Assembly (NCBI GenBank): GCA_947085205.1
Contig: CAMTVO010000001.1
Coordinates: 27,142-91,141 of the forward strand
Reading direction: 5' to 3'
DNA from: an uncultured Nitrospiraceae bacterium
Lineage (GTDB): Bacteria; Nitrospirota; Thermodesulfovibrionia; Thermodesulfovibrionales; Dissulfurispiraceae
Length of the DNA stretch: 64,000 nucleotides
The notes under the pieces were generated by a model. That model was not told where the DNA came from. It worked only from the letters and a program-made list of their open reading frames with translations, and did no database searches. This document shows, piece after piece, positions 2-63,508 of this stretch (the first letter of the stretch is position 1; every line of letters begins with the position of its first letter). Both the position numbers and the translations under genes were made by a program.

Positions 2-505
2 AAGACAGAGGTAGGTAAAATATTGTCCCTGAAGCTCGGTTATGCTCTTGTTGATGCCGACACAGAAATAGAGAAAGAGCAGAAGATGACGATAACCGAG
101 ATTTTCAAGCAATACGGCGAACCGAAATTCAGGGATATAGAGGCGGATGTCATAAGGCGGCTTTCGATGATGGAAAATGCAATAATATCAACAGGAGGCG
201 GAGCAGTATTGAGGCAGGAGAACATGGATAATCTGAGGAAGAACGGTGTGATTGTCTGTCTTGCCGCATCTCCAGAAACTATCCTGAGAAGGACAGGCAA
301 TAACAACGACAGGCCGCTCCTTCAGGTCGAAAATCCCCTCCAGAAAATAAAGGAACTCCTCGAATTCAGAAAGCCGTATTACGAAAAGGCTGATATAATG
401 ATAGAGACAGAGGGAAAAAGCCCATTTGAAGTGGCAGAGGAGATAATAAAGGCAGTAGATGCGACAGTTAATAGAGCGACAGAGCAACATCAGTGCTACA
501 GTTAA
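2..505 (+). CDS. aroK: Shikimate kinase, 5'-truncated by the window edge; last ~15 codons derive from an octamer repeat array
   Basis: Frame is open from base 2 (KTEVGKILS, end of Walker A); motifs FRDIE, STGGGAV and RPLL; directly upstream of aroB. Confidence 0.95.
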   Translation, partial: KTEVGKILSLKLGYALVDADTEIEKEQKMTITEIFKQYGEPKFRDIEADVIRRLSMMENAIISTGGGAVLRQENMDNLRKNGVIVCLAASPETILRRTGNNNDRPLLQVENPLQKIKELLEFRKPYYEKADIMIETEGKSPFEVAEEIIKAVDATVNRATEQHQCYS

Positions 506-595
506 TAGAGCGACAGAACGACAGTTTTTTATAAGGAATAAATTTTTCCATAATTTAACTGTCGCACTGCCGAACTGTCGCACTAATTAACTAAT
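461..595. repeat. Inverted pair of degenerate octamer arrays (AGAGCGAC ... GTCGCACT) around a conserved core
   Basis: 533-565 is identical to 37703-37735 (33 bp); 546-568 is identical to 45980-46002. Confidence 0.9.
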
Positions 596-600
596 TAAAA

Positions 601-2398: not shown

Positions 2399-2472
2399 AT
2401 AGCTGATAGCTTGTAGCTGATAGCTCGTAGTATTGATTCCCTCTGTGAGCTATGAGCTATGAACCATGAGCT
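2399..2472. repeat. Inverted pair of heptamer arrays (TAGCTNR ... TGAGCTA) at the phoB/phoR junction
   Basis: tagctga tagcttg tagctga tagctcg, spacer, then tgagcta tgagcta tgaacca tgagct. Confidence 0.9.
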
Positions 2473-14704: not shown

Positions 14705-15993
14705 TGGATTACCTGGAATTTTTCGATTTAAAAGACGACCCCTTCAGACTGACGCCCGACCCGTATTATTTTTATCCGTCGGAGAGTCATAACGAGGCAT
14801 TGTCGTCTTTTAATTATATCGTTGAGCAGAAAGAGGGTTTTTTCCTCTGCATCGGAGAGCCGGGCACAGGCAAGACCACGTTGCTGAACACATTTCTTAA
14901 TACAGAAAAATGGAAGGACAGGGCAGGCATGGCGCTTGTGCTGACGCCGAGACTTTCGCCGGAAGAATTCCTGCTTACTGTGCTCGAAGACCTGAATGTA
15001 AAGGTTAAGAACACGAATAAGAACGAGATTATCAAGGCATTCAGGGATTTCCTTATAGAAAACTCGATGTTAGGAAGAAGGATTATTATTATCGTCGACG
15101 AAGCGCAGAATCTGCCAGACGAGACCATCGAGGAATTGAGACTTTTGTCGAATCTCGAGACAGAAAAGGAAAAACTGCTCCAGATAGTCCTGATAGGACA
15201 GCCTGAATTAAGGAAGAGGCTGCTTTCGGAGAATTTAAAGCAGTTGAACCAGAGGGTAACAGTAAGGGCTACATTGAGGCCTTTAACCGAGTATGAGACA
15301 TCGGACTATATCAATTTCAGACTGGTAAAGGCGGGAAAGGGCAATGTCATGTTCGATGAAAAGACAAAGAAGCTTATATACAAGCTCTCGAGAGGCATTC
15401 CGAGACTTATTAATCTTGTATCCTCAAGGGCGATGATGGCTGCATATCTTGACCTGAGCAGGAGCGTCAAAAAAAGGCATGTAATGTACGCTGTAAAACA
15501 TATTTCGGACAGCCTGATAAAAACAACAAGGCGCTTAATGACATTTTCCCGCGCAGCGATCTATTTTATGCTTATTGCTGTCGTTGTTGCAGCGCTTACC
15601 ATAACAAAAGACATTTTTGTGAAGACAATTTACGCTCCGGAGCATAAGAATCAGACTTCCCGAATTCCTGTAATCATAAATAAGGAAAGCCAAAATGCCG
15701 CTGTTGTCCGGCCCGAAAGCATAGCCCCTGAAAGCATAGCAATAGAACAGAAAAGTCCCAAGCAGGATACAAGGAGGACGGTAACGGTTATTGCAGGCGT
15801 TGTTAATTTGAGGGCAAAGCCTTCTTTGGACGCCGAGACTGTCGGAAAGGCGCAAAAAGATGCAGTCCTTGAAATAATCGACGAGTTTACCGATACAGCA
15901 GGCAGAAAGTGGTATAAGGTAAAGACATCAGGCGGAAGGGAATGCTGGGTTGCAGGAAAGGTGGTAAGGGTTAATAATGGAGTAATGGAGTGA
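14701..15993 (+). CDS. ExeA/MshM-family AAA ATPase with C-terminal SH3b-like domain
   Basis: Motifs PFRLTPDP, GEPGTGKT, IIVDEAQNL, GIPRLIN; C-terminal VNLRAKPS...WYKV...WV. Confidence 0.88.
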   Translation: MMDYLEFFDLKDDPFRLTPDPYYFYPSESHNEALSSFNYIVEQKEGFFLCIGEPGTGKTTLLNTFLNTEKWKDRAGMALVLTPRLSPEEFLLTVLEDLNVKVKNTNKNEIIKAFRDFLIENSMLGRRIIIIVDEAQNLPDETIEELRLLSNLETEKEKLLQIVLIGQPELRKRLLSENLKQLNQRVTVRATLRPLTEYETSDYINFRLVKAGKGNVMFDEKTKKLIYKLSRGIPRLINLVSSRAMMAAYLDLSRSVKKRHVMYAVKHISDSLIKTTRRLMTFSRAAIYFMLIAVVVAALTITKDIFVKTIYAPEHKNQTSRIPVIINKESQNAAVVRPESIAPESIAIEQKSPKQDTRRTVTVIAGVVNLRAKPSLDAETVGKAQKDAVLEIIDEFTDTAGRKWYKVKTSGGRECWVAGKVVRVNNGVME

Positions 15994-16005
15994 TGGAACG
16001 TTGGG

Positions 16006-20073: not shown

Positions 20074-20118
20074 CAATCAAGTGAGCAGTAAGCAGTGAGC
20101 AGTGAACAGAGAGCAGAG

Positions 20119-23907: not shown

Positions 23908-25925
23908 CGCAAAAAATCAAATTAGTTGATAGGCTCATGGCTCATGGCAGAAACCACAATAAACAATCAGCTATGAACTATGAGCTATCAGCTATGAGCC
24001 AGAGAGGCTTTACCCTTATTGAACTGGCAATGGTGCTGGTGGTGATAGGGCTGCTCATTGGACTTGGTGCAAGCCTTATAGGCCCTTTGACTAAAAGGGC
24101 AAAGCTGATTGAGACGAGAGAGACGGTCAAAGCTGTATATGAATCAATATTAGGATATGCTGCTGCCAATAAAAGATTGCCTGCTGACTTATCTGTTCTC
24201 GGCATAAAGACAATAGACGCCTATACACGCCCTTTGCAATATTTCAGGGCTGACGCACTTGTGACAAATAACCTCTGCACTTCTGCAGCTACATACTTTA
24301 CTGTTAATGACAGCAGCAGTGGGACTCTTCAGACAAAGAGCAATGTCGCGTTCATAGTCTTTGCCGAAGGAGATAACAGAACTAACAACACAGGATCAAC
24401 CTCTCCATTTACTATAAAAGAACAAGGAGTGGACGACTATGATGATATTGTAATGTATGTGGATATCGATAAGCTCAGAAGTCAGATATGCACCTCTTTC
24501 CGTATAACTACGGAGACACTGCCAATAGGGACAGAGGAGATACCGTATCCTCTCTCAACGACATTAGAGGCTACTGATGGCACACCCTCGTACACGTGGG
24601 GTATACAATCGGGTTTATTACCACCTGGGTTAAGTTTGTCATCTGCTGGTATTATTTCAGGCACACCAACAGCAGATGGAAGCTATAATTTTACGGTTCG
24701 TGTGTGTGATAACGATGATACTAATCCACCAAACGATTGTCCTCCCACTACTAATAAAGATAGATTGGCAACAAAGAGCCTGACCATAACAATAAACCCC
24801 AACAAGCCACGGATAACCACAGAGTTTTTGAATTATGGGACGGTAAACCAAAGCTATGCGGCTACACTAAGTGCAACAGGTGGTCTGTCGCCTTATTCGT
24901 GGAATATTCCTTCAGGTCTTCCACCAGGCCTTACATTGAGAGATACGGGAACATGCGGTTCGTTTACCTGTACGGCTTCAACACCATGCATCTGTGGGAC
25001 TCCAACAACAGCAGGTACTTTTACTTTCACTCCGACCGTTACAGATAACCGTTCAAGAACAGCATCAAAAACCTTATCTATTGCTATAAATGCCGCTGCC
25101 GCTGCGGGTTCACCAACATGCAGTCTTTCGGCAAATCCAAGTTCTATGCCAACAGCAGGGACGAGTGTCCTAACATGGTCTATCAATAACGGGCCTGCGA
25201 CAGGAACATGGAGTTCTCCTCCAGGCGGAACGTGTCCATCGCCGGTTCCAAGCGGAAGCGGTGGAAGCTGCACAACCGGAACAATCTCAACAACTACGAC
25301 ATTCACTCTTACCGTTACAAATGCGCAAGGCAGCAGTAGCTGCTCTGCGACTGTTTTTGTCGGCACACCTCCCGGTCCGGCTCCATCCTGCACATTGGAG
25401 GCGAGTCCGAATCCAGTTACAATTGGAAATCCTACAACACTTATATGGACAATAAACAATGGACCTGCAAATGGAACATTTTCACCATCAAGCGGGACAT
25501 GCACAGGCTTTTCAAATTCTTATGGAGGCAACTGTACAACAGGAAACATAAACGCTGACACTACTTTTCAGCTTTCAGTAACTAATTCCAATGGCACTGG
25601 TCTGTGTGCAACAAGGGTATATACAACTTCGCAGGATTTTTGTACAGCATTAACTGTCAGAAATGACCCCACCGGAAGCACTATCTATGTAAAAGGCGGA
25701 CAGTATGGCACAACCTGCACGCGTGTGAGAACTAACAGGACATTCAGGATAAATTACTCGGATACAAGCCCTGTTACTTTATGGCAGAACAGCACTTGCA
25801 CATCAAATCCGCAGGACATTAAGAGTATTACATATAACGATGCGGTGAGCGCTGATGGTAATAAAAACTGTGCAGTGGCGATAAATGATACGGATACAAA
25901 TGATTGGGAACTTGTTGATGAATAA
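23904..25925 (+). CDS. Large pilin-like adhesin with prepilin N-terminus and Ig-like repeats
   Basis: RG|FTLIELAMVLVVIGLLIG; two LPPGL/GTPT Ig-like repeats; two Cys-containing CSLSANP/CTLEASP repeats; start 23892 or 23904. Confidence 0.85.
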   Translation: MTQKIKLVDRLMAHGRNHNKQSAMNYELSAMSQRGFTLIELAMVLVVIGLLIGLGASLIGPLTKRAKLIETRETVKAVYESILGYAAANKRLPADLSVLGIKTIDAYTRPLQYFRADALVTNNLCTSAATYFTVNDSSSGTLQTKSNVAFIVFAEGDNRTNNTGSTSPFTIKEQGVDDYDDIVMYVDIDKLRSQICTSFRITTETLPIGTEEIPYPLSTTLEATDGTPSYTWGIQSGLLPPGLSLSSAGIISGTPTADGSYNFTVRVCDNDDTNPPNDCPPTTNKDRLATKSLTITINPNKPRITTEFLNYGTVNQSYAATLSATGGLSPYSWNIPSGLPPGLTLRDTGTCGSFTCTASTPCICGTPTTAGTFTFTPTVTDNRSRTASKTLSIAINAAAAAGSPTCSLSANPSSMPTAGTSVLTWSINNGPATGTWSSPPGGTCPSPVPSGSGGSCTTGTISTTTTFTLTVTNAQGSSSCSATVFVGTPPGPAPSCTLEASPNPVTIGNPTTLIWTINNGPANGTFSPSSGTCTGFSNSYGGNCTTGNINADTTFQLSVTNSNGTGLCATRVYTTSQDFCTALTVRNDPTGSTIYVKGGQYGTTCTRVRTNRTFRINYSDTSPVTLWQNSTCTSNPQDIKSITYNDAVSADGNKNCAVAINDTDTNDWELVDE

Positions 25926-28999: not shown

Positions 29000-29634
29000 A
29001 TGAGTCAGCAGTAGGCAGTGAGCAGTCAGCAGTCAAAAAAATAAATACGCCCCTGTCAAAAGATGCCGTCCTGAAGCTCAAGGTCGGAGATATGGTTCTT
29101 ATCAGTGGCAGGATTGTTACAGGGCGCGATAAGGTTCATAAATTCCTGTTTCACGACAAGCCTGGCAGGAAACAAATCCCATTCGAACTTGATGGGAGCA
29201 TAATTTACCACTGCGGACCTATAATTACCCCCGCCCTCCCCCTTGAAGGGGGAGGGGTGGGCGGGGGTAAACTAATTGCAGCAGGACCTACAACGAGTAT
29301 GAGAGTTGAGATGTACGAGGCAGAGGTGATAAAGACTTACGGCATAAGAGGCATAATAGGGAAAGGCGGAATGGGCGAGAAGACACTCGATGCAATGAAG
29401 GAATGCGGCTGCGTATATCTTCATACAATAAGCGGCGCTGCCGCATATCTTGCGGACAGGATTAAGAATGTGGTCGACGGATGGAAGATAGAAGAATTCG
29501 GAACGTCCGAGGCGATGTGGCTGCTGGATATTGAGGATTTTCCAGCAATAGTGACTATGGATGCGCATGGAAACAGTCTGCATAAGGATATAGAGAGAGT
29601 TTCGTTAGAAAGATTGAAGGAAATAATAGGATGA
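28993..29634 (+). CDS. Fe-S hydro-lyase beta subunit
   Basis: Motifs TGRD, IYHCGP, AGPTTSMR, IGKGGM and DAHGNSLH. Confidence 0.92.
   Translation: MVNESAVGSEQSAVKKINTPLSKDAVLKLKVGDMVLISGRIVTGRDKVHKFLFHDKPGRKQIPFELDGSIIYHCGPIITPALPLEGGGVGGGKLIAAGPTTSMRVEMYEAEVIKTYGIRGIIGKGGMGEKTLDAMKECGCVYLHTISGAAAYLADRIKNVVDGWKIEEFGTSEAMWLLDIEDFPAIVTMDAHGNSLHKDIERVSLERLKEIIG
29225..29270. repeat. GC-rich REP-like palindrome, in-frame in the hydro-lyase beta subunit
   Basis: ttacccccgccctcccccttgaagggggaggggtgggcgggggtaa; encodes TPALPLEGGGVGGG. Confidence 0.85.
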
Positions 29635-31007: not shown

Positions 31008-32000
31008 CTAATCTTTCAGGTTTCTCACAAAATCTCTATTTTCAATATACCATTTAACAGTTCTCTCGACACCCTCTTCTATGGATATCTTAGGGGACCA
31101 GCCGAGCACTTCCTTTGATGAGTCTATATCCGCCCATGTAGCGGTTATATCAGCCGGATGGAGTGGAAGCCATTGCATCTCGGCCTTTTTCCCGAGTTTA
31201 TCTTCGATTAGATTGATTACATGCATGAGTTTTACAGGACTGTCGCTGCCGAGATTGAATGTATCATAGCCTACCTTTTTAAGCCCTTTTATGGTTCCGT
31301 CGGCAATATCGTCTATATAGGTAAAATCACGCTTTTGTTTTCCATCGCCGAAGACAGGTATGGGTTTCCTCATGTCCATGTTTTTTATAAATCTGAAGAT
31401 GCTCATATCAGGACGGCCTGCCGGACCGTATACTGTGAAATATCTAAGGACTGTTGTATCGATTCCGTACAGATAGTGATAGCTGTAACACATTGCCTCT
31501 GCCCCCTTTTTTGTAGCGGAATAAGGAGCCAGCGGATGGTCTGTATTGTCATAAACGCTGAAAGGCATCTTTTTGTTATCACCGTAAACGCTGGATGTCG
31601 ATGCAAGGACAAATTTCTTTACATTGTGTGTCTTACAGCATTCAAGGAGATTCAGAGTTCCCTTTAGATTGGTATCGAGATATGCCCAAGGGTCTTCTAC
31701 AGATGCCCTTACTCCTGCCCTTGCAGCAAGGTTGATTACTGCATCTATCGTGTAATTGGCAAATACTGTTTTGACCGCATCAAAATCGGCTATATCACAT
31801 TGATGAAAACTGAAGCTAACTCTTAACTCTTCACTCTTAACTCGTAACTGTTTTAGCCGCCACTCTTTCAGTCTCGGATCGTAGTAATCGTTCATATTAT
31901 CGACTCCTGTTACCATATGCCCCTGCCCTAAAAGCAGTTCAGAGACCTTATGGCCTATGAAGCCGCAGCATCCTGTAACTAATATGCGCTCATAGTTCAT
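31008..32000 (-). CDS. NAD-dependent nucleotide-sugar epimerase (UDP-glucuronate 4-epimerase-like)
   Basis: Motifs TGCCGFIG, LAARAGVR, YSATKK and RYFTVYGP.GRPDM. Confidence 0.92.
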   Translation of the reverse strand: MNYERILVTGCCGFIGHKVSELLLGQGHMVTGVDNMNDYYDPRLKEWRLKQLRVKSEELRVSFSFHQCDIADFDAVKTVFANYTIDAVINLAARAGVRASVEDPWAYLDTNLKGTLNLLECCKTHNVKKFVLASTSSVYGDNKKMPFSVYDNTDHPLAPYSATKKGAEAMCYSYHYLYGIDTTVLRYFTVYGPAGRPDMSIFRFIKNMDMRKPIPVFGDGKQKRDFTYIDDIADGTIKGLKKVGYDTFNLGSDSPVKLMHVINLIEDKLGKKAEMQWLPLHPADITATWADIDSSKEVLGWSPKISIEEGVERTVKWYIENRDFVRNLKD

Positions 32001-32053
32001 AGCTCATAGCTCATGGTTTTCACTATGAGCCATCAGCTATCAGCGATGAGCTA
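31987..32053. repeat. Inverted pair of heptamer arrays (TAGCTCA family)
   Basis: gctcata gttcata gctcata gctcatg, spacer, then atgagcc atcagct atcagcg atgagct. Confidence 0.9.
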
Positions 32054-33405: not shown

Positions 33406-33448
33406 AGGTTTTCCATTGTTCCAATACTCCATCACTCCAATTCTTTTT

Positions 33449-35042: not shown

Positions 35043-35128
35043 ATACGTTATAGCGTTCAGCGTCAAGCGTTATAGCGTAAAATATTATCTATAACTCTAT
35101 AACTCTACTCTATAACTCACTACGCTAT
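35043..35128. repeat. Inverted pair of octamer arrays (TATAGCGT ... CTATAACT) at the ntrY/ntrX junction
   Basis: Same unit family as 43069-43160. Confidence 0.8.
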
Positions 35129-37144
35129 AGGTATTTCCACGGTAAAGATACTTCCTTTTGGATTATTGTCTCTAATCAGAATTCTTCCTCCGTGGTCAGT
35201 CACTATCTTGTTCGCTATGGCAAGGCCGAGACCAGTGCCATCCTTCCTCTTGGAGAAGTAAGGAATAAAGAGTTTTTCCTTTTCTTCATCGCTAATCCCC
35301 GGCCCTGTATCCGCAATATCGATTACTACACTATTTTCGTTCATTTTCACGGAAATATCAATGACTCCTCTGCCGCTCATTGCATTTATGGCATTATCTA
35401 TAATATTTATCAGCGCCCTTTTGAACTGCTCAACATCGATATTGACGGACGGAATCCCTTCCTGCATCGCAATATCTATCTCCAGATACCTGAATCCTCT
35501 GTACAAAGACACCGCATCGTCTATCAACTCAATTAGATTCGCAGGAGCCTTGTTTACTTCAGGCATTCTGCCGTACCTTGAAAAGACATCGACGAGTCTT
35601 TTCAGGCTCTCGACCTCTGTAATAATTGTCTTCGTCGATTTTTCGAATACTGCATTGAAGTCCTCATCCTTTTGCTGCCACTTTTTTATAAGACGTTCTG
35701 TTGAAAGCTTGATCGGCGTGAGGGGATTTTTAATCTCGTGCGCGATTCTCCTTGCTACTTCCTGCCAAGTTATTGCCTTCTGCGCCTTAATGATGTCGGT
35801 CAGGTCGTCAAAGACAACTAACATGCCGAGAGAGCCGGACGTATAGGATTCCCTTATCCCGGATATGTAAACTATCAGTGTGAGCATCTTGCCTTCGATG
35901 TTTACCTTCACCTCTTTCTTTATCTCCCTTATCTTTTTGCCTTCCATATCTTTAACCATCTGTGTTAGATCTTCTGAATTTAGTCCTGCAATGAAATCCT
36001 TGTAGTCCTTGTCTATTATATCTTCCTGTCTTGCATTCAGTATGGAACAGGCTGCCTTGTTGAAGGTCAAAATCTTTCCGGTATTGTCGAGGAATATTAC
36101 TCCTGAGTTGATGTTTTCGAGGATGTTTTCGAGATAGAGTCTTCTTTTGTCCGATTCCGTATAAGCCTTTTCAAGCGAATCCTTGCTGTCCTTTAATTGC
36201 TTCACCATCTGGTTGAATGAATTGATCAAAAGACCGACCTCATCCTCACTTTTTACATCGACCTGCACATCCAGATCGCCTGATGCAACCCTTTCTGTCG
36301 CCATTGCAAGGCTCTGAATAGGGATTGTGATGCCCCTCGATATCTTTAGCGAAACCCATAATCCGGTAAAGACCATCATAAGGGTCAAAAAGCCTAAAAT
36401 AAGTATGTAGTTAAGTCTCAGAGGCTCTTTTAGGGATTCGAGTTTTAAGTAGTCCTCGTAGAGGTTTTGTATTCTTTCCGTCTTTTCCGAAAAGGCCTTT
36501 GGAAGGATAAAATCAACTACTATTACTCCGCCCTTTGAACGGTCAGGCACAGCAGCCCTTATGATGTCGCCTGTGTCTTTTGAAATGACCTCTGTGCCTT
36601 CGTTTCCGTGCAACGCGTCCTTAATTATATCTGTAGCATTTGGCGGAAGACCGGCATAGCGGTGAACCGACATGTCCGGCGGAAGCGGCTGTTTGCCGGC
36701 AGCGGCGAATCTTGCCGCTTTCAGCACCCGTTCTCTTTCGAGGTCGTAAAACTCCCTTGCAAGCTCGACCGACTTCTGGAAAGGCTCTTTCATCTGTGGA
36801 GAAAAGATGCGGCTGATATAATTGGTTGCAAGGCCGCTCGCAGCAACAAACAGGAAGGCCGACGGTATAAGTGTGAGAATAACAAAGATGGTCATGAGCT
36901 TTGTCCTGAATTTATAGCCCAATACCTTGTTCTGTCTTTCGATATACAGCCTGAAGATGTTTTTTCCGACAAAGAACATGAGGGTGAGGAGGGCAAGGAT
37001 GTTGATGGTGAGAAGCCCTATGAGTAAAATCCTTGTTGTTATGTCAACCGACGGCAGTTTGATAAAGTAAAGCTCTACGGCTGTAATGACAGAAACCAAG
37101 AGGAGCAGTCCGAATACTATTATCAGGGGTTTGAATATTCTCAT
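35120..37144 (-). CDS. ntrY: NtrY-like HAMP/PAS sensor kinase
   Basis: WQEVARRIAHEIKNPLTPIKLSTERL; HAMP and PAS domains. Confidence 0.9.
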   Translation of the reverse strand: MRIFKPLIIVFGLLLLVSVITAVELYFIKLPSVDITTRILLIGLLTINILALLTLMFFVGKNIFRLYIERQNKVLGYKFRTKLMTIFVILTLIPSAFLFVAASGLATNYISRIFSPQMKEPFQKSVELAREFYDLERERVLKAARFAAAGKQPLPPDMSVHRYAGLPPNATDIIKDALHGNEGTEVISKDTGDIIRAAVPDRSKGGVIVVDFILPKAFSEKTERIQNLYEDYLKLESLKEPLRLNYILILGFLTLMMVFTGLWVSLKISRGITIPIQSLAMATERVASGDLDVQVDVKSEDEVGLLINSFNQMVKQLKDSKDSLEKAYTESDKRRLYLENILENINSGVIFLDNTGKILTFNKAACSILNARQEDIIDKDYKDFIAGLNSEDLTQMVKDMEGKKIREIKKEVKVNIEGKMLTLIVYISGIRESYTSGSLGMLVVFDDLTDIIKAQKAITWQEVARRIAHEIKNPLTPIKLSTERLIKKWQQKDEDFNAVFEKSTKTIITEVESLKRLVDVFSRYGRMPEVNKAPANLIELIDDAVSLYRGFRYLEIDIAMQEGIPSVNIDVEQFKRALINIIDNAINAMSGRGVIDISVKMNENSVVIDIADTGPGISDEEKEKLFIPYFSKRKDGTGLGLAIANKIVTDHGGRILIRDNNPKGSIFTVEIPIA

Positions 37145-37788: not shown

Positions 37789-37876
37789 CTTGACATATTA
37801 CTAAAAATTTATTTTCATTATAACATAGACATTAGATGAGTTAAGGAGCTAATGAGTTAGGAGTTGAGAGTTAACG

Positions 37877-42463: not shown

Positions 42464-42520
42464 AAGAAAATGGAGTGTTGAAGTAATGGAGTGATGATTA
42501 TTTAAAAGAACACTTTTATT

Positions 42521-43078
42521 ATGCAAACAATCGATAAAAAGACAGTCTGGCAGGGGAATTACATCAGGTCGATAATTTTAACCTACAAGGACTATTCGGG
42601 AAATTTAAGGAACTGGGAGGCTGTAGAAAGGGTTAACTGCAACGGCATAGTTGCCGTTGTCCCTGTGACCCCAAACGGAGAACTCCTTCTGATACGGCAG
42701 TTCAGGCCTGTTGTGAATAATTTTGTGGTTGAGTTCCCTGCAGGGCTTAATGATAAAGGTGAGAGCCTCATTGATGCAGCAAAGCGGGAGTTGATTGAAG
42801 AGACGGGTTATACTTCTGATGAGTTTATATTCCTTTCCGAAGGGCCTTTGTCATCCGGTCTGTCCACAGAAATATTGAGTGTATTTCTGGCAAAAAATGC
42901 TGTTTCGGCTGCGCCTCAATTAAAACAGCAGTACCCTGCCGAGGAGACAGAAAATATCGAGATAATAAAAACGCCCATGTCTTTGGCTTATGAAACACTC
43001 GGAACCCTTCGGGAGAGGGGAGATTACATAGACTTGAAAATCTATGGGCTTGTGGAGTTAGCAAAGAAGCGTTTATAG
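42521..43078 (+). CDS. NUDIX hydrolase (ADP-ribose pyrophosphatase-like)
   Basis: EFPAGL...GE....AAKRELIEETG. Confidence 0.92.
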   Translation: MQTIDKKTVWQGNYIRSIILTYKDYSGNLRNWEAVERVNCNGIVAVVPVTPNGELLLIRQFRPVVNNFVVEFPAGLNDKGESLIDAAKRELIEETGYTSDEFIFLSEGPLSSGLSTEILSVFLAKNAVSAAPQLKQQYPAEETENIEIIKTPMSLAYETLGTLRERGDYIDLKIYGLVELAKKRL

Positions 43079-43160
43079 CGTTATAGTGTGGAGCGTTATG
43101 GTGTTAAAAAATAAGTTCCATAGACGCAACAAGCGCTATAACGTTCAACGCTATAACGCA
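43069..43160. repeat. Inverted pair of octamer arrays between the convergent NUDIX and ferredoxin genes
   Basis: tatagcgt tatagtgt ggagcgt tatggtgt ... gcgctata acgttca acgctata acgc. Confidence 0.85.
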
Positions 43161-43470: not shown

Positions 43471-43541
43471 GTTCATGACTGATAGCTCATAGCTGGCAAC
43501 TGATAGTGAAACAAACTATGAGCCATAAGCTATGAACGATG
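43471..43541. repeat. Inverted pair of heptamer arrays (TAGCTCA family) upstream of proA
   Basis: gactgat agctcat agctggc aactgat ... ctatgag ccataag ctatgaa cgatg. Confidence 0.8.
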
Positions 43542-44818: not shown

Positions 44819-44839
44819 ATAAGTAGAGGAGGGATTGTT

Positions 44840-45118: not shown

Positions 45119-45120
45119 AT

Positions 45121-45816: not shown

Positions 45817-45819
45817 ATG

Positions 45820-46185
45820 GAAAATTCCAATAACCAAGTGCCAATTTCCAAATAAACTCCAATAATCAAGTATAAAATTCCCAAAACTTTTGCGTCATTC
45901 CCCGACCCCCTTGTCATTCCCCGATTTAATCGGGGAATCCAGAGGGCAAGCTTAATCAGGGGGTAAGAAAAGTGATTTATTCCATAATTTAACTGTCGCA
46001 CTATAGTTAATTAACTAATGTCGCTTTGTCGCACAAAGGTGGCGATGGTAAAGCCTTTTATCCGCCCATGCCTACTCATGATTAACGTTCAATTGCATTT
46101 TTTGGGATAACTATTTGAGGTTGTTTGCTTTTCCATGTTATATTACTTTACCCCGTTAGAAGGTCGGGGCATTCTAACGGGGTGT
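45820..46185. repeat. Intergenic stack of at least five different miniature repeats
   Basis: Heptamers 45823-45880; gtcattcccc...ggggaatccag hairpin 45913-45941; core repeat 45980-46019; MITE arm 46033-46106; accccgttagaa/ttctaacggggt hairpin 46150-46184. Confidence 0.85.
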
Positions 46186-46227
46186 ACATTTAATTTTTAC
46201 AATGGACATAAAGGAGGTTCTTGATTA

Positions 46228-47460: not shown

Positions 47461-47474
47461 GCGGGATAAGAGAT

Positions 47475-49043: not shown

Positions 49044-49044
49044 A

Positions 49045-49476
49045 GTGGAAGAAACCGGAGTGGTAAAAGAGGTTATCGGACCGAAGGCTATCGTAACTGT
49101 TCAGAGACAGAGCGGATGCGACTCATGCCCCGGCGGCTCTGTTTGTAAGATGATGGGAAATGAGGCTGAAATCGAGGCCGTAAACGAGGCAAAGGCAGGG
49201 GTCGGTGATACTGTCAGACTCGCATTCAAATCATACACCTATCTAAAAGGCACTGTTTTTATTTACGGCATACCGTCCATAATGCTCATAATCGGCGCTG
49301 TTATCGGAAAGGAATACTTAAGTAAGCTTTTGCCTAATATGGACCCTGACATTGTATCGGCCATGGGAGGTTTCGGCCTGTTTGCGCTGAGCTTCCTTTT
49401 TATGAAATTCTGGACGAAAAGGTATGAAGGCAAAAAGGAATACATGCCGGTAATAATAAAAGTGCTCAGTGGTTAG
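49045..49476 (+). CDS. RseC/MucC-family protein
   Basis: EETGVV, RQSGCDSC....C and two C-terminal TMs. Confidence 0.85.
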   Translation: MEETGVVKEVIGPKAIVTVQRQSGCDSCPGGSVCKMMGNEAEIEAVNEAKAGVGDTVRLAFKSYTYLKGTVFIYGIPSIMLIIGAVIGKEYLSKLLPNMDPDIVSAMGGFGLFALSFLFMKFWTKRYEGKKEYMPVIIKVLSG

Positions 49477-49558
49477 TAATCAGTGGCCAGTAGTGCCTAT
49501 AGTCAGGAGATTACTATTTTCTAACTACTGACCACTGTTCACTAATCACTATTCACTA
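49466..49558. repeat. Inverted pair of heptamer arrays at the rseC/fusA junction
   Basis: tcagtgg ttagtaa tcagtgg ccagtag ... ctactga ccactgt tcactaa tcactat tcactaa. Confidence 0.85.
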
Positions 49559-49574
49559 AAAAGAGGGGGTAAAT

Positions 49575-51665: not shown

Positions 51666-51669
51666 ACAT

Positions 51670-54014: not shown

Positions 54015-54015
54015 A

Positions 54016-55071: not shown

Positions 55072-55130
55072 AATAGCGCATAGTTTTTTGCCATGAGCCA
55101 TCAGCCATGAGCTAAAATGGAGGTTTGATT

Positions 55131-56078
55131 ATGCTTAGAAAAATATTACTTGGTATCTGCGTCATGCTGCTCGGGTATGCAACAATTGTAAACAGCGCCA
55201 TACTGCTCGATAAGATCATGGCTATAGTGAACAAAGAGGTAATAACATGGAGCGACCTTTACAAGGCGATGGAGTTCGAGGCTACTGATGGGATGAAGAC
55301 AATGAAGGACGAAGATAAACGCAGGTTTTTCAAGGAAAATGAACAGGAATTTCTGGAGAGCCTTATCGATATGAGGCTTCAGCTTCAGGAGGCGGCAAAG
55401 GCAGGCGTCTCTGTAAGCGACGAAGATGTGAGCAGGGCTATAGAAAACATAAAGAAGAAATACTCAATGACGGACGAAGTGTTTAAAGAAGCTATCGGCA
55501 AGGAAGGGTTTACCCTCGCTGAGTATAGAAAGAAACTTTCAGAGCAGATAACAATAAGCCGCGTTGTGGAGCAGGAGGTAAAAAGCAAGATCCTTGTGAC
55601 CGAAGGCGAGGTTGATAAATATCTCTCAGAAAATAAGGATGTGGCAAAGGAAAGCGACGGCTTTAATATAAGCCATATATTTTTCAGAAAGACGGGTGAC
55701 AGAAAGCAGATCGAAGAAAAAGCGGCTGAGATATACAAAAAGATAAAGACAGGAGAAAACTTTTCGGAGGTTGCAAGACAGCACTCCGAAGACGCGAGCG
55801 CAAGTAGCGGTGGGGAGCTTGGTTTTATCAGGAAGTCCGACATGTCAAAGGATTTTCTTGACGTCCTTTCGAAGATGAAGGCAGGCGATGTGAGCGAGCC
55901 TTTCTGGGGCGGCAATGGTATTCATATAATCAGGCTGAACGATAAAAAAGAGATCAAGAGCCTGCAGGAATTGAGAGAGATGGTAAGGCAGAAGCTGTTG
56001 GAGGAGAAGTTCAACAAGGAATACAGGAACTGGATTAAAGGGCTGCGTGAAAGGGCATATGTGGAGATCAAGCTTTAG
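55131..56078 (+). CDS. SurA-like peptidyl-prolyl isomerase/chaperone
   Basis: LDKIMAIVN.EVIT; parvulin F..VA..HSED....GGELG. Confidence 0.9.
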   Translation: MLRKILLGICVMLLGYATIVNSAILLDKIMAIVNKEVITWSDLYKAMEFEATDGMKTMKDEDKRRFFKENEQEFLESLIDMRLQLQEAAKAGVSVSDEDVSRAIENIKKKYSMTDEVFKEAIGKEGFTLAEYRKKLSEQITISRVVEQEVKSKILVTEGEVDKYLSENKDVAKESDGFNISHIFFRKTGDRKQIEEKAAEIYKKIKTGENFSEVARQHSEDASASSGGELGFIRKSDMSKDFLDVLSKMKAGDVSEPFWGGNGIHIIRLNDKKEIKSLQELREMVRQKLLEEKFNKEYRNWIKGLRERAYVEIKL

Positions 56079-56081
56079 GGC

Positions 56082-56786
56082 ATGGAGCAGAGAATTCAAA
56101 AGATCCTTGCCCTGACGGGTATAGCTTCGAGGCGAAAGGCAGAGGAGTTCATAATCGAAGGCAGGGTAACGGTAAATGGAAAGACGGCAGTCCTTGGAAT
56201 GAAGGCAGACCCTGCAAAAGACCATATAAAAGTTGACGGAAAGCTTTTAACAAAGCCGGAACCTAAAATATATCTGATGTTAAATAAGCCCGCAGGCGTT
56301 GTAACGTCCCTTTCCGACCCGGAGGAAAGGCCTACGATAAAAGATTTCTTAAAGAGTATAAAATACAGGGTCTTCCCTGCAGGCAGGCTTGATTATGACT
56401 CTGAAGGACTTCTGCTTATAACCAATGACGGTGATTTTGCACATTCGATAATTCATCCGTCTAAAAAGATACCAAAGACCTATGCGGTTAAGGTAAAAGG
56501 AATCATCGATGAAGGCGGAATGGAGAATTTGAGGAAGGGCGTAAGACTGGAAGACGGCTTAACAGCGCCGGCAAAAGTAAAGAGAATAAGGCAGACGGAA
56601 AGTAACTCATGGGTAGAGATAACTATATATGAGGGCAGGAAAAGGCAGGTAAGGAGGATGCTCGAAAAGGTAGGGCATCCTGTGATCAGGCTGAAAAGGA
56701 TTGCGATTAACGGTATAAAGCTCGGGGATTTAAAGCCGGGAGAGATAAGGCGTCTGGCGCAAGAAGAAATTAAAAAGCTGAAGTGA
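56082..56786 (+). CDS. rluB: RsuA/RluB-family pseudouridine synthase
   Basis: S4 domain (ASRRKAE), GRLDYDSEGLLL and EGRKRQVRRM. Confidence 0.9.
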   Translation: MEQRIQKILALTGIASRRKAEEFIIEGRVTVNGKTAVLGMKADPAKDHIKVDGKLLTKPEPKIYLMLNKPAGVVTSLSDPEERPTIKDFLKSIKYRVFPAGRLDYDSEGLLLITNDGDFAHSIIHPSKKIPKTYAVKVKGIIDEGGMENLRKGVRLEDGLTAPAKVKRIRQTESNSWVEITIYEGRKRQVRRMLEKVGHPVIRLKRIAINGIKLGDLKPGEIRRLAQEEIKKLK

Positions 56787-56798
56787 AGATAAATAATC

Positions 56799-56880
56799 TG
56801 GAGTGCTGGAGTAGTGGAGTATTGGGTAACAAAGTAATTTTAGGCAAGACAGATAATACTCCAACACTCCATTACTCCAA
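56799..56880. repeat. Inverted pair of octamer arrays (GGAGTRNT ... AYACTCCA) at the rluB/aspS junction
   Basis: ggagtgct ggagtagt ggagtatt ... aatactcc aacactcc attactcc; single arms also at 15978, 33411 and 42470. Confidence 0.9.
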
Positions 56881-56900
56881 TTAAATTTGTTGGAGGTTTT

Positions 56901-58700
56901 ATGGTTCGCGATAAATGGTGCGGTGAAATCATGGAGTCTGACATAGGCTCCAACATGAGCCTTGCCGGATGGGTATTCAGAAGAAGAGACCACGGAGGCT
57001 TGATATTTGTGGATTTAAGGGACAGGAGCGGTATCGCTCAGGTTGTCTTCAGTCCCGATGCCTCAAAAGAGGCGCACGAGCTTGCCCATGATTTAAGGGG
57101 CGAGTTTGTTATATCAGTATCAGGAGAGATTAGAAAAAGACCCGAAGGGACAGAGAATCCGAATATCCCCACAGGAATGGTGGAGCTTTATGCAAAAAAA
57201 CTGACTGTTTTAAATGAGTCGTCCCCCTTGCCGTTCCCTATGGAAGAGGCAGCAGAGGCGTCCGAGTCTTTAAGGCTGAAGTACAGATATCTTGACTTAA
57301 GAAGGCCTGAACTCCAGCGTAATTTAATTGTCAGGCACAGGGCCGCAAAGGTTATAAGGGATTATCTTGATGAAAAAGGATTCCTCGAGATAGAGACACC
57401 AATGCTCACAAAATCTACACCTGAAGGTGCAAGGGATTATCTTGTTCCGAGCCGTCTCAATCCCGGCCACTTCTTTGCGCTTCCGCAGTCGCCCCAGCTT
57501 TTTAAGCAGATACTCATGGTATCAGGACTCGAAAGGTATTTCCAGATAGTCAGGTGTTTCAGGGATGAGGATTTGCGGGCAGACAGGCAGCCCGAATTTA
57601 CGCAGGTTGATATGGAGATGTCATTCATTGATAAGGAAAATGTTATTGATGTTATCGAGGGAATGATTAAGAGGCTTTTCAAGGATGTCCTTAATATTGA
57701 GATGACAGTGCCATTTGAAAGGCTCAACTATAAAGAGTCGATGGATAGGTTCGGCAATGACAAGCCAGACATGAGATTCGGACTTGAATTAAAGGATATG
57801 GCTGATTTGGCAGCGAAAGGAACATTTAAGGTCTTCCTTGATGCTATCCATTCTGGCGGCAGGGTAAAGGCCATTAACGGCAAAGGGATGGCAGGACTTT
57901 CCAGAAAAGAGATAGATATGCTTACAGAGGAGGCACAATCCTTCGGCGCAAAGGGACTTGCATGGATAAAGGTCAGGAACGGCTTTGAATCACCCATTGC
58001 AAAATTCTTCCCTGAAGAGATTCTGAGGCAGATGGCTGAGAGGCTCTATGCATCTGAGGGAGATATGATGCTCTTTGTTGCAGACAAGGAGAAGGTTGTC
58101 CATGATGTACTGAGCCGCATGAGGCTTGAGCTCGGCAAGAGGCTGAATCTTATACAAGATGGATTTAAATTTTTGTGGGTAACAGATTATCCGCTTCTGG
58201 AATGGGACGAAGAAGGCGGCAGATTTACAGCCATGCACCATCCATTTACTTCACCTATAGATGAGGATATAGAAAAAATGTTATCTATAGAGATGTCTTC
58301 ACCGGAACTGTTCACTGTTCACCGTTCACTGTTGACTGCTTTAAAGGCAAAGGCATACGATATTGTGTTGAACGGTTATGAAATAGGCGGAGGCAGCATC
58401 CGTATCCACAGGAAGGATGTACAGAAGAAGATGTTCGAGATACTGAAGATATCCGAAGACGAGGCAAAAGTAAAATTCGGTTTTTTGCTTGATGCCCTCG
58501 AATATGGAGCGCCTCCGCACGGCGGAATTGCACTCGGTCTTGACAGGCTGGTGATGCTGATGGTCGGAGCGCACTCCATAAGGGATGTCATCGCATTCCC
58601 CAAAACACAGAAGGCAGTGTGTTTTATGAGCGGCGCGCCTTCGATTGTCGAGCCGAAACAGTTGAGAGAGTTGAATATAAAAGTGGATATACCGCTATAA
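56901..58700 (+). CDS. aspS: Aspartate--tRNA ligase
   Basis: [29 protein letters not shown] and GAPPHGG. Confidence 0.98.
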
Positions 58701-60411: not shown

Positions 60412-61041
60412 ATGGCGCTAAAAATCGGGTTTGACATCGAGAATCTTTCTCCATCGAAAAAGAAACTGCTGCTTGTACTGCCTGCATTGCTTACAACTGT
60501 TCTCTTTGCGGTCTTCTTTATAATGCCTGCTGTCGAAGAGCGGAGTAAATTGTCTGTAGAAGTCGATAAGCAGAATAAGGAAATTCAAACAGCGCAAAAA
60601 AATGCAGAAAAACTCCCGGCATTAATGGCAGAAAATGAAAGGCTGAAAAGCAAACTTTTCGAGCTTCAGTTGCAACTGCCGGAGGAAAAGGAGGTATCGG
60701 GACTTCTTAGGCAGGTCTCGGAACTCGGCATAAAGTCGGGACTCCAGATTGTCTCATGGAGGCCGAGAGAAAAGTCTGTTCATCCGAGCAAGGAAGTTTA
60801 CGAGATACCTGTTGACATCGAGATGCGCGGTGGTTATCACAGATTCGGGCAGTTTTTCAGCAATATAACGAGACTCGGCAGGGTTGTCAATGTATCTAAT
60901 ATAAATGTGAAGACGATAGAGCAGAAACAGAAGGGCGCGGCATTGAATGTAAGCTTTACTGCCATGACATACTCTTTTATTCCGGAAAAAGAGAGGAAGG
61001 AATTGGAAAAAGCGGCAAAAGAGAAAGAGAAGAAGAAATGA
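60412..61041 (+). CDS. pilO: PilO
   Basis: QLPEEKEV..LL, YEIPV.I and G.YH.FG.F. Confidence 0.93.
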   Translation: MALKIGFDIENLSPSKKKLLLVLPALLTTVLFAVFFIMPAVEERSKLSVEVDKQNKEIQTAQKNAEKLPALMAENERLKSKLFELQLQLPEEKEVSGLLRQVSELGIKSGLQIVSWRPREKSVHPSKEVYEIPVDIEMRGGYHRFGQFFSNITRLGRVVNVSNINVKTIEQKQKGAALNVSFTAMTYSFIPEKERKELEKAAKEKEKKK

Positions 61042-61478
61042 AAACAAGGCTTTTATTAATACTTTCGATTCTATGCATCGCTTCCATCATTGGCGCTATT
61101 GTTGCCTTTGCAGAAGAAACAACAAAGACCTCTACTGCCTATGAATATACTGCCGGTAAAAAGAGAGATCCTTTCATACCGCTTATTTTCAAGGCAGAGG
61201 CTAAGCCGCAGAAAGGGCTTATTCCTATAGAAAGCTATGAAGTTTCTGAATTTAAGCTCATAGCCGTATTATGGGACAAGACCAAATATTATGCGGCAAT
61301 CACACTTCCCGACGGCAAATCATACACCATTAAAGAAGGAGCCAAGCTGGGTTTGCATGGGGGAAAGGTGTATAAAATCACAAAGGATTCTGTTATCATT
61401 AGAGAGAGCGTAAGAGATTATAGAGGAGTCCTTAGTCCTAAGGACTTCATCTTAAAACTCCGCAGGGAGGAGGAATGA
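61038..61478 (+). CDS. pilP: PilP
   Basis: KRDPF, P.ESY....FKL and G..LG..GG.V. Confidence 0.88.
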   Translation: MKTRLLLILSILCIASIIGAIVAFAEETTKTSTAYEYTAGKKRDPFIPLIFKAEAKPQKGLIPIESYEVSEFKLIAVLWDKTKYYAAITLPDGKSYTIKEGAKLGLHGGKVYKITKDSVIIRESVRDYRGVLSPKDFILKLRREEE

Positions 61479-63508
61479 TGAGAATATTTGTTTTCTTGCT
61501 TACTGCTTACTGCTTACTGCTTACTGCTAATTCATATGCAAGTAATTATCAAATCACAAACATTGAGGCGCTTGACAACGTTGTCGCAATCAAAATCAGC
61601 GGGCCTATAAAATACAAGATATACAACCCTGCGGACCCATTCAGGGTTATTGTAGATATGGAAGGTGTGGGCCTTGGAAAATTTAAGGAAAAGATTTTTT
61701 TTCAGAAGGCAGGCATAACCGAAATAACACCTTCTCAGATTGAAATGCCTGTGATTACTTCACGGCTGGATATTCTTCTGCAGTCTCCTTCCGGCATTAA
61801 GCCGGAGATAAAAGGTGATACGCTTATGCTTTACATAGAGACGCAAGCCGATAAGACAAGGCATGACCGCAGAGTTGAAGCCAAGTCTGAGACAGGCAGC
61901 GCCGCAAAAGAGATAGCGGCTGTTTTATTTGATAAGACTGATGAAGGTATTGAGTTTGTTATAAAAGGCGATGGAATAATGCCGGAGCCTGCTGTATTTG
62001 AGCTTGACGGAAAGATTATTATAGACATCCCTGATGTGGTGATGAAGGCATCCCTGCCGTCCAGCATACCGTCTCCTGTTAAAGACCTTAAATATAAGGC
62101 TGAAAAAGGGATAGTGAGATTTATACTGGACATCGAAGGAAAGGCTGATACCGAAATAGTTGCGATGGAGGATGAAATAATAGTTGATATTGCTTTTAAA
62201 GATAGGAAAATTGATTTGGCAAAAAGGGATGATATTCAGAAAGCCCCAAACTCCAAACTCCAAACTCCAAACTCTAACTTAGTTTCCCTGGATTTTCAGG
62301 ATGCCGATATAGTTCCTATTCTGAGGCTTTTGGGCGATGTCAGCGGATATAATATTGTCGTTCATCCCGATGTAAAGGGAAAGATAACAATGAAGCTCAT
62401 GAATGTGCCTTGGGAGCAGGCGTTGGATGTGATATTAAAGACTTTTAATCTCGAAAAAGTGGTTGAAAAGAATGTCATCAGGGTTGCGACAATAAAGGCA
62501 TTTCAAGATGAAAGAAAGGCTGTTGTCGAAACAAAAGAGGTCTTTGGTAAGGCGGAGGATGTAGAGACAAAAGTATTTGTTGTGAACTACGCCAATGTCG
62601 ATAAAGTTAAAGACTCCATAGATAAGGCAAAAGTGCTTTCTCCAAGGGGCAGCATAAGTACTGATACGAGGACACGCTCCTTGATTGTTAAGGATATAAC
62701 ATCGGGTCTTAATGAAATCAAGAAACTTATAGAGACTCTTGATAAGGCTACCCCGCAGGTGCTTATTGAGTCGAGAATTATCGAGGTGAGCACCAACTTT
62801 TCAAAGAGCCTTGGTGTTGAGTGGGGTTTAAGGTGGACACCTAAAATGGGAGACCAGAATACTAACATCGTGGGTTCCGCTCCAAACTTACCGACAGTTG
62901 GAAGATCGCCAGGCCTGATAAACCTGCCTGCTACTACTACAAAGATTGTCTCTCCTACAAGCGCTATAACGCTCGGCTATTTAAATGCAGCGCAGACCCT
63001 TGGCTTGGATGTAAGGCTGTCTGCAATTGAAGCTATTGGCAAGGCAAAACTGCTTTCAACGCCGAAGATTATGACTCTTGAAAATGAGCAGGCGATTATA
63101 AGACATGGCAAGAGGATACCGATTACTACTCCAGGCGCAACGCAGGGCACTTTTACAACAACTTATATTGATGCAAATTTAAAGATTACCGTGACTCCAC
63201 AGGTAGCGCCTGACGGCACAATTTTCTTGAAGATAGAAGTAAATAAGGATGAACCTGATTATACAAACAAAGATACACTGGGTAATCCGGCCATAGATAC
63301 GAGGTCTGTATCAACTCAGGTGCTTGCAAAAGATGGTGAGACGGTTGTTATAGGCGGAATACTGAAGAGCTCGGAATCGGATAGCGGCTCGGGAGTGCCT
63401 GGAATTTCCAAGGTTCCTATACTTGGATGGCTTTTTAAAAGGGAGACCAAGGAGACAAGCTCCGAAGAGCTACTTATCTTCATAACCCCGAGGATTGTAA
63501 GGCAGTAA
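61475..63508 (+). CDS. pilQ: Type IV pilus secretin PilQ
   Basis: AMIN-like N-terminus, VSLDFQDADI, VPWEQALD, QVLIESRIIE and VPILGWLFK. Confidence 0.96.
   Translation: MMRIFVFLLTAYCLLLTANSYASNYQITNIEALDNVVAIKISGPIKYKIYNPADPFRVIVDMEGVGLGKFKEKIFFQKAGITEITPSQIEMPVITSRLDILLQSPSGIKPEIKGDTLMLYIETQADKTRHDRRVEAKSETGSAAKEIAAVLFDKTDEGIEFVIKGDGIMPEPAVFELDGKIIIDIPDVVMKASLPSSIPSPVKDLKYKAEKGIVRFILDIEGKADTEIVAMEDEIIVDIAFKDRKIDLAKRDDIQKAPNSKLQTPNSNLVSLDFQDADIVPILRLLGDVSGYNIVVHPDVKGKITMKLMNVPWEQALDVILKTFNLEKVVEKNVIRVATIKAFQDERKAVVETKEVFGKAEDVETKVFVVNYANVDKVKDSIDKAKVLSPRGSISTDTRTRSLIVKDITSGLNEIKKLIETLDKATPQVLIESRIIEVSTNFSKSLGVEWGLRWTPKMGDQNTNIVGSAPNLPTVGRSPGLINLPATTTKIVSPTSAITLGYLNAAQTLGLDVRLSAIEAIGKAKLLSTPKIMTLENEQAIIRHGKRIPITTPGATQGTFTTTYIDANLKITVTPQVAPDGTIFLKIEVNKDEPDYTNKDTLGNPAIDTRSVSTQVLAKDGETVVIGGILKSSESDSGSGVPGISKVPILGWLFKRETKETSSEELLIFITPRIVRQ

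Follow-up and report, generated by a model that had tools for sequence, protein, structure and literature searches.

The stretch of DNA analysed here, 64,000 nucleotides of an uncultured Nitrospiraceae bacterium (GenBank assembly GCA_947085205.1, contig CAMTVO010000001.1, positions 27,142 to 91,141) and hereafter called the window, carries at its gene junctions a set of degenerate tandem arrays of heptamers and octamers, mostly laid out as an array, a short loop and a second array that is the reverse complement of the first. An initial annotation, made from the sequence alone, had described ten such two-armed elements and seven single arms, and had explained them as the empty sites or scars of a small cargo-delivering element that targets gene boundaries, with genes for four-helix-bundle (4HB) proteins of family TIGR02436 as candidate cargo. 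The elements are arrays of the short tandemly repeated repetitive (STRR) type, and arrays of the same kind enclose a TIGR02436 gene elsewhere in this genome, in its relatives and in many phyla. The genes flanking four of the window pairs were confirmed by Pfam, namely those for shikimate kinase and dehydroquinate synthase (aroK-aroB), for an OmpR-type response regulator and a histidine kinase, for RseC and elongation factor G (EF-G; rseC-fusA), and for a pseudouridine synthase and AspS (rluB-aspS).

Degenerate tandem 7/8-mer arrays were seen at all ten two-armed places (Table 1), the evidence being Tandem Repeats Finder (TRF) output together with direct reading of the sequence; the TRF output comprises 69 rows in the window, mostly with periods of 7, 8 and 14-16, and has a score floor of 30 below which runs are readable only by eye. 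Reading also revealed the general plan of degenerate array, short spacer and reverse-complement array. RNA folding, in which each place was compared with dinucleotide shuffles on the plus and minus strands, gave arm-to-arm pairing far beyond the shuffles in eight of the ten places (plus-strand z from -3.1 to -7.0, energies from -20.6 to -39.4 kcal/mol), the stems being imperfect hairpins of about 20-35 bp that fill the intercistronic spacers. The individual z values were -5.6 on the plus and -6.6 on the minus strand for 456-598, -5.5 for 2396-2475, -4.0 for 23928-24002, -5.6 (+) and -6.5 (-) for 31985-32056, -7.0 for 43066-43162 (dG -38.2), -3.1 (+) and -5.8 (-) for 43468-43543, -4.6 for 49463-49560 and -4.9 for 56796-56883. 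The remaining two places are weak: 35043-35128, which has a kinase gene (stop 35120) on one side and a minus-strand sigma-54 activator gene on the other, pairs poorly on either strand (z -2.1 on the plus and -1.5 on the minus strand), and 55073-55113 gave z -1.4 and -2.1. Among the seven single arms, five were called by TRF, and those at 42470 and 45823 were recognized by eye only. All ten pairs lie in spacers between open reading frames (ORFs) or overlap a stop or start codon. In fact, the start codon of the histidine kinase gene (2459) falls inside a right arm (2446-2472), the right arm at 23969-23999 overlaps the likely start of the pilin-like protein (MSQRGFTLIEL), that of 43471-43541 runs over position 43532, where an aldehyde-dehydrogenase-family gene starts, and the left arm of 49466-49559 supplies the final codons and the stop (49476) of rseC. 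Rfam and tRNA scans of the window returned no matches.

Table 1. Array elements of the window, two-armed places first and single arms below.
Feature	Position	Strand	Context	Evidence
Two-armed, 8/15-16-mer arrays AGAGCGAC / GTCGCACT, loop 38 nt	456..598		aroK (stop 505) - aroB (start 601)	TRF rows 456-516, 555-592, 582-598
Two-armed TAGCTGA / TGAGCTA	2399..2472		OmpR-type response regulator (stop 2396) - histidine kinase	TRF, Pfam
Two-armed GGCTCAT / AGCTATG	23932..23999		hicA-like gene - pilin-like gene	TRF, sequence
Two-armed GCTCATA / CTATCAG (AGCTCAT family)	31988..32053		der (stop 32071, -) - epimerase gene (start 32000, -)	TRF
Two adjoining arrays of different families, GCGTTATA and, reverse-complemented, GAGTTATA	35046..35129			TRF rows
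Two-armed TATAGCGT / ACGCTATA	43068..43160		begins on NUDIX gene stop (43078)	sequence reading
Two-armed, degenerate, AGCTCAT / ATGAGCT	43471..43541			sequence reading; no TRF row
Two-armed CAGTGGT/AGTAAT and CACTATT	49466..49559		rseC - EF-G gene (start 49575)	TRF rows
Single GCCATGA array, unconvincing as two-armed	55073..55113			TRF row 55090-55112
Two-armed octamer element CTGGAGTA / ACTCCAAC	56798..56880		rluB (stop 56786) - aspS (start 56901)	TRF rows
Single arm TAATGGAG x2.9	15975..15997	+	overlaps AAA/SH3 gene stop (15993)	TRF, ORFs
Single arm AGTGAGC x5.3	20080..20116	+	just past stop 20073; then G+C hairpin and T run	TRF, sequence
Single arm AGTCAGC x4.7	29003..29035	+	fumarate hydratase alpha-beta junction	TRF, Pfam
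Single arm, + strand TCCAATAC	33420..33441	-	at der start (33435, -)	TRF, ORFs
Single arm, GAGTTAAG-type	37836..37874		upstream of DUF4390 gene (start 37788, -)	TRF
Degenerate GGAGTRNT run	42469..42496	+	after HIT gene stop (42463)	by eye, TRF score <30
Degenerate TTCCAAT/CTCCAAT run	45823..45870	+	after nadD-like gene stop (45816)	by eye, TRF score <30

The genome that carries the window, referred to below as G000 (1.885 Mb in 65 contigs, 89.7% complete), is rich in such arrays throughout. It contains 547 period-7 TRF rows and 792 merged arrays, against 40 and 118, respectively, in a control that consisted of a single order-3 Markov simulation and is therefore a crude null. Enrichment at gene junctions, as the initial annotation had anticipated, is borne out in part: when placed by our own crude ORF-based gene calls, 269 of the 792 arrays are intergenic (11.7% of the genome), 128 lie less than 150 nt from the start of a longest ORF and 47 near a stop, and 348 are deep inside ORFs, as are 10 of the 41 arrays of the window. 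G000 thus displays the marks of STRR repeats, that is a 7-nt unit far above chance and arrays that are mostly intergenic and capable of forming hairpins; we take its units to be other than those of classical STRR repeats. An inverted partner within 2.5 kb at a score of at least 12 was found for 89 of 671 arrays, compared with 17 under random placement, with a gap below 60 nt in 63 of the 89. The 74 non-overlapping inverted pairs lie at median distances of 5 nt and 10 nt from the left-hand and right-hand flanking genes, and 45 of the 56 placeable pairs are between co-directional genes, the same share as for junctions in general. The uniform arm polarity that had been noticed in the window extends to the genome, where the G-richer arm is the 5' one in 66 of 72 pairs, a count in which pairs of the same family are not independent events; because a hairpin reads alike on both strands, this polarity genuinely belongs to the element and is no consequence of gene direction. 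The units themselves are diverse, with 195 distinct canonical heptamers (AGTGAAT, CGTAATG and GAGTTAA among them) in 528 arrays, and share a bias, as the motif GT.A occurs on either strand in 249 of the 528 units compared with 19% expected at random.

These properties bear on the possibility that an RNA- or DNA-binding regulator of downstream translation recognizes the heptamers as a series of binding sites, the inversion being secondary. The arrays adjoin start codons, some of their units hold an ATG or a GGAG resembling a Shine-Dalgarno (SD) sequence, the last ACTCCAA unit in the right arm of 56798-56880 can pair with the SD region of aspS (TTGGAGG), the common GTNA core suggests sequence-specific recognition, and a role of this sort has been proposed for the TAACTGA repeats of Beggiatoaceae (PMC4679880). 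Nevertheless, the number of different heptamers is too large for one binding site, arrays also occur within genes and past stops, and the polarity of the pairs is strand-symmetric and independent of gene direction, for which reasons we regard a regulatory origin as distinctly improbable.

The strongest clue to the nature of the arrays comes from a gene that they enclose. No ORF in the window matches TIGR02436 or PF05635, and a profile search of G000 returned three TIGR02436 matches, all on contigs outside the window. Two of these genes, C65:951-1343 (between gmd and fcl) and C23:26273-26585, stand between matching inverted arrays; the third match (C14:122175-122750), a 194-residue ORF that reaches 29.7 bits over its first 69 positions, has no arms. 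Frames of about 200 residues similar to this last one also occur in the relatives G025, G019 and G002. A filled copy of G000 matches TIGR02436 at 97.8 bits and the protein of PDB 2gsc (XCC0516) at E 1e-14. Among 40 relatives, 26 have TIGR02436 matches (27 of 41 genomes with G000 counted), and an upstream array with its reverse complement downstream, at a score of at least 12, was found at 22 of 27 loci from G000 and relatives, a score reached by 3.4% of 702 cross-locus pairings; further loci of the relatives, weak and broken copies included, gave 17 of 30 at this threshold. Likewise, in a wide survey with a closer protein subset as query and one genome per species, which returned 80 loci from Bacteroidota, Proteobacteria, Clostridia, Planctomycetota, Acidobacteriota, Cloacimonadota and others, 59 loci had matching arms compared with 4.7% of 955 cross-locus pairings, and under a slightly altered definition of the flanks arms were present at 54 of the 80 4HB genes and, among the other ORFs of these loci, at 5 of 152. 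The best period was 7 in 107 of the 160 flanks of the survey loci, and in one locus (L001:915-1400) the arms enclose the whole ORF in both the minimum free energy and the centroid fold. The link between TIGR02436 genes and flanking arrays of this kind, which the initial annotation had put forward, is accordingly substantiated.

The arms of the filled cassettes resemble the gene-less arrays of G000. The upstream arm has more G than C in 21 of the 27 filled loci, and the gene-less pairs share this polarity with the G-rich arm at the 5' side; GT.A occurs in 33 of 64 upstream-arm units, against 11% expected and 8 of 64 for its reverse complement. As these polarity and GT.A counts agree, the gene-less arrays share period, polarity and unit bias with the cassette arms. 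A genome-wide search of G000 for any gene between matching arms showed no overall surplus at low scores, with 16 of 1717 genes at a score of at least 12, where 14.3 are expected, and a small tail of 8 at a score of at least 14, where 2.3 are expected, this tail being a mixture of insertion sequence ends, repeats resembling repetitive extragenic palindromic (REP) sequences and a 4HB gene.

In all the phyla sampled, the arms make up a single unit with the gene and are inherited together with it. The units of the arms vary between loci, and arm similarity climbs with protein identity: among non-syntenic 4HB pairs of 65-80% identity (n=8), 38-50% have an arm score of at least 14, compared with 1-2% of the pairs below 55% identity. 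The arm sequence, in other words, tracks the lineage of the 4HB gene. The arrays overlap the first and last codons of the 4HB ORF, and arms are retained on the 4HB genes of the array-poor genomes G001, G004, G007 and G019, where samples of at most 20 kb show 0-1 arrays per 10 kb.

Operon junctions of the ordinary kind harbour the cassette, and what is found at orthologous junctions ranges from the gene in intact form or as a pseudogene to a pair of arms with no gene, one arm or nothing at all, the cassette decaying in place. The polymorphism between filled and empty states that had been predicted does exist, at five junctions outside the window. At a histidine kinase-response regulator junction (HK-RR), which was compared in 18 genomes, G036 and G021 are filled, both with AGTGAAT arms and with proteins 76% identical, G007 has an empty pair, G000 has a left arm and an unrelated element resembling a miniature inverted-repeat transposable element (MITE), and the remaining 14 genomes have neither array nor 4HB gene, one of them ending at a contig edge just upstream of the gene. 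In a tree of the two flanking genes, concatenated and analysed by a quick search with moderate support, G007 is sister to G021 (SH-aLRT 92) and G036 to an array-free genome (86); a tree of the response regulator only was unresolved and was dropped. The simplest reading of the HK-RR pattern is loss of the gene with the arms left behind. Between gmd and fcl, G031 has a pseudogene between arms, with stops and an internal deletion, G016 a single C-rich arm, and G001 and the second copy in G016 nothing. The CarB-pfk junction is filled in G002 and an empty pair in G000, and FlgH-FlgI is filled in G007 and has arms in G000. Descent from a filled cassette is thus seen at HK-RR and gmd-fcl, and at no window junction.

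At the window junctions themselves the picture is different. None of the 106 relatives' junctions examined for the four of them held a filled allele: 4HB genes were found in 0 of 29 relatives at rseC-fusA, 0 of 29 at rluB-aspS and 0 of 19 at the response regulator-histidine kinase junction, and at aroK-aroB 0 of 29 had an array or a 4HB gene. The proposal that the window pairs are cassette scars is therefore not shown for these four. What the relatives do hold is other arrays. At rseC-fusA, clear two-armed elements of other unit families, read by eye, are present in G021, G001, G024, G005, G002 and G036, each beginning in the final codons of rseC, and other or degenerate hairpins occur in G010 and G016; at rluB-aspS, the pairs in G002 and G005 are of other families, and G013 has one array; at the response regulator-histidine kinase junction, an AGGCAAT pair is present in G018 and arrays in G002 and G008. 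The same window junctions have thus been struck repeatedly by different unit families.

A similar recurrence is found inside genes, as arrays are translated in frame within conserved genes of G000. An array in aspS (58307-58338 of the window) adds 7-14 residues to the protein when two outgroups are taken as reference, and the same site is filled in sister genera by peptides of other heptamer families; in CarB, an array-encoded insert (G000 C24:19500-19537) occupies one site in two genera. The signal peptides of FlgI and FlgH are also array-encoded (G000 C14:48600-48820), that of FlgI by the right arm of the FlgH-FlgI pair. In view of the in-frame arrays, the enrichment at junctions can reflect selection rather than targeting, and the initial claim that gene boundaries are targeted was not upheld. 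Recurrence at the same sites fits permissive sites or re-seeding at existing arrays, and not a specific targeting of gene boundaries.

With regard to mobility, 44 of the 53 loops of at least 16 nt are unique in G000, and no mobilising mechanism was identified. Two families behave otherwise. The 38-nt loop of 456-598 has eight other copies in the genome, in either orientation, and the element belongs to a dispersed, MITE-like family; the loop of the AATTACG family has three other copies, four in all. Many near-identical full-length copies, as expected of MITEs or of REPINs (paired REP sequences), were found for these two families only. Further copies of the 456-598 family lie at C1:1142 and C1:12926 and on C43, C59, C15, C17 and C58, and a partial one, made of the loop and a TGTCGCTC arm, is located at 37703-37781 of the window, upstream of the DUF4390 gene (TRF row 37730-37781, loop copy C1:64844-64865). 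G000 also has a single Y1_Tnp gene (C5:2779-3105), and, as a separate observation, REP-like GGGGACGGTTCTATTTA inverted repeats flank small genes beside a fragment resembling a REP-associated tyrosine transposase (RAYT; C3:18200-19400). One might therefore suppose that all pairs are non-autonomous elements of the classical MITE/REPIN sort, which a transposase encoded at another place, for instance a Y1/RAYT enzyme, moves in trans. Against this stand the unique loops, the dozens of unit families, the degenerate copy number of the arrays, which leaves no fixed element length, and, for most pairs, the absence so far of target-site duplications and of conserved full-length copies; moreover, the GGGGACGGTTCTATTTA repeats and the Y1 gene are a second repeat system, unrelated to the heptamer arrays. 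Such an origin for the set as a whole seems to us very improbable indeed. An origin of the arrays driven by reverse transcriptase likewise finds no support in G000, where a search of the 89.7%-complete genome for the RVT_1 domain returned none.

Taken together, we hypothesize, with a probability of roughly 0.55, that the window elements are gene-less members of the repeat system to which the arms of a widespread hairpin cassette belong, some being scars and most probably persisting or spreading without a gene. In its full form this cassette encloses a gene of the TIGR02436/S23p family, the so-called '23S rRNA intervening-sequence' protein and homologue of PDB 2gsc. Some of the window pairs would be what remains after gene loss, while most arrays, single and in-frame ones included, would persist and spread on their own, presumably through slippage, correction between the arms and renewed seeding of permissive sites, and the 456-598 family may spread as a MITE-like copy. 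In the transcript the arms would pair and the stem would probably be cut, or tolerated, as a substrate of RNase III, by analogy with Coxiella's intervening sequence (IVS), which might allow an insert between cistrons at little cost; an RNase III gene (rnc) is present in G000, and no 23S gene was found in its assembly.

Several observations weigh against this hypothesis. Besides the lack of filled alleles at the window junctions and the many unique loops, only two armed 4HB genes (of the three TIGR02436 matches) face the 792 arrays of G000, and the profile search detected no 4HB remnant elsewhere in that genome. The intact 4HB genes found between gmd and fcl in G000 and G025 are only distantly alike, which speaks for several arrivals at a site that is permissive or formed beforehand and not for one ancestral cassette. 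The hisA-hisF junction has a cassette in G021 and G001 and reads simply TAAAATG in G000, and of ten distinct junctions filled in some relative only 3 have arrays in G000 (P 0.19 against a baseline of 259 of 1687 junctions, or 15.4%). Across the 40 relatives, array density and 4HB count are weakly correlated (Spearman 0.38, from samples no longer than 20 kb, with related genomes uncorrected for phylogeny). The sense strand folds better than the antisense strand in only 6 of the 10 window pairs, a comparison that gives no argument for selection specifically at the RNA level. The single Markov simulation, the crude gene calls and the modest HK-RR tree add to these points.

A good part of this evidence could equally be accommodated if arrays and gene had independent origins, the arrays arising by STRR-type slippage and being retained because hairpins between cistrons would stabilise the transcript or couple translation, with a selfish 4HB gene landing or surviving in loops that already exist and the window pairs never occupied. 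The unfilled window junctions, the unique loops, the hundreds of arrays for two armed genes, the unrelated 4HB genes at one gmd-fcl junction and the occurrence of differing unit families at one and the same site, whether rseC-fusA, rluB-aspS or within AspS, would all follow, and gene-free STRR hairpins are known (PMC2670836). Such an account has more difficulty with arms that follow the 4HB lineage at non-syntenic places and overlap the ends of its ORF, with armed 4HB genes in genomes poor in other arrays, with junctions that are filled in relatives and array-free elsewhere, as at hisA-hisF, and with a filled HK-RR state on non-sister branches. We therefore hold it to be a serious but rather unlikely alternative.

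The hairpin-cassette hypothesis can be set beside several known systems, here to the extent of the portions of the cited articles that were available. In the IVS of Coxiella burnetii, inverted repeats form a stem in which RNase III cuts, and a variable number of tandem GACAGAT heptamers lies upstream of the S23p ORF; ORF-bearing 23S IVS are also described in Leptospira, Brucella and Xanthomonas (PMC4990558). The filled copies of G000 share with the IVS the protein family and an ORF in the loop of an inverted-repeat stem, as well as tandem heptamers adjoining the start codon, the copy number of which differs between strains in the IVS (PMC4990558). In contrast, the window elements have no ORF and lie between protein-coding cistrons and not in helix 45 of the 23S rRNA, and the arrays that make up their arms are long and degenerate and come from many unit families, for which cutting by RNase III is presumed by extension. 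The STRR repeats of cyanobacteria resemble the present arrays in being 7-bp tandem repeats, intergenic and capable of forming hairpins between co-transcribed genes, the example being a hairpin of unknown function between hupS and hupL (PMC2670836). The differences are that the host is a member of the Nitrospirota and not a cyanobacterium, and that G000 has far more unit families, a uniform arm polarity and arrays translated in frame; in the STRR literature searched, nothing was found that ties these repeats to a 4HB gene. The TAACTGA direct repeats of Beggiatoaceae, Cyanobacteria and Bacteroidetes are likewise heptamers placed just upstream of start codons, in some cases over ORF ends, with a patchy distribution across phyla, but they have one dominant unit and a single inverted case among 170 (PMC4679880), whereas G000 has dozens of units and 74 inverted pairs. 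With REP/REPIN sequences and MITEs the elements have in common short palindromic intergenic repeats and, in the case of 456-598, conserved loop copies; unlike them, most G000 pairs have unique loops, arms of variable length and no linked cognate transposase. Genes annotated as 23S_rRNA_IVP have been reported lodged between cas genes (PMC3936711), and Pfam PF05635 has been likened to Avd (PMC10053308). As to heptamers beside an S23p ORF, the Coxiella IVS paper was the only report found and no general rule was encountered, in a search that covered subscription journals thinly.

A wider and more speculative extension, which we consider unlikely, is that all bacterial STRR-type arrays are the footprint of one self-propagating hairpin cassette, the autonomous form of which would encode only the S23p/Avd-like 4HB protein; this protein would recognize array hairpins of the GTNA type and, with no conventional transposase at work, promote their copying, upkeep or homing. 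If this were true, the 23S IVS, the junction cassettes, the gene-less hairpins and the in-frame inserts would be stages of one new class of mobile element. To our knowledge, STRR heptamer repeats and the 23S IVS have each stayed unexplained for decades, and we know of no role for the S23p/Avd-like family outside diversity-generating retroelements. Since heptamer arms wrap the 4HB gene in most sampled loci and gene-less versions crowd the operon junctions of G000, the three puzzles can be placed in one testable framework, which would also account for where this lineage gets its hairpins between cistrons, its new start codons and signal peptides and its in-frame peptide inserts.

Some smaller features of the locus and the genome deserve mention. 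An intrinsic-terminator reading of the window pairs was rejected, as no arm-to-arm stem was called in 42000-58000, where only the local hairpins 55063-55081 and 56875-56895 were found. The former is a small terminator-like hairpin that precedes the array at 55073-55113. The latter, ACTCCAA/TTGGAGG, has a T-rich tail and may exert an anti-SD effect on aspS. In G000, a MITE-like element bounded by the termini GTCATTCC...GGAATGAC has 14 exact copies, and 52 when one mismatch per terminus is allowed, about half of which are expected by chance. Outside the window, it sits at five of the ten junctions that are cassette-filled in some relative (C38:17361-17426, C24:18618-18700, C10:26841-26942, C37:38569-38634 and C40:4554-4621), a post hoc comparison giving P of about 6e-6 against a 3% baseline, and is otherwise found away from heptamer arrays, with 3 of the 52 copies within 60 nt of one. 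Finally, directly upstream of the pair at 23932-23999 lies a HicA-type toxin gene (Pfam HicA_toxin; 23692-23907) of a toxin-antitoxin pair.

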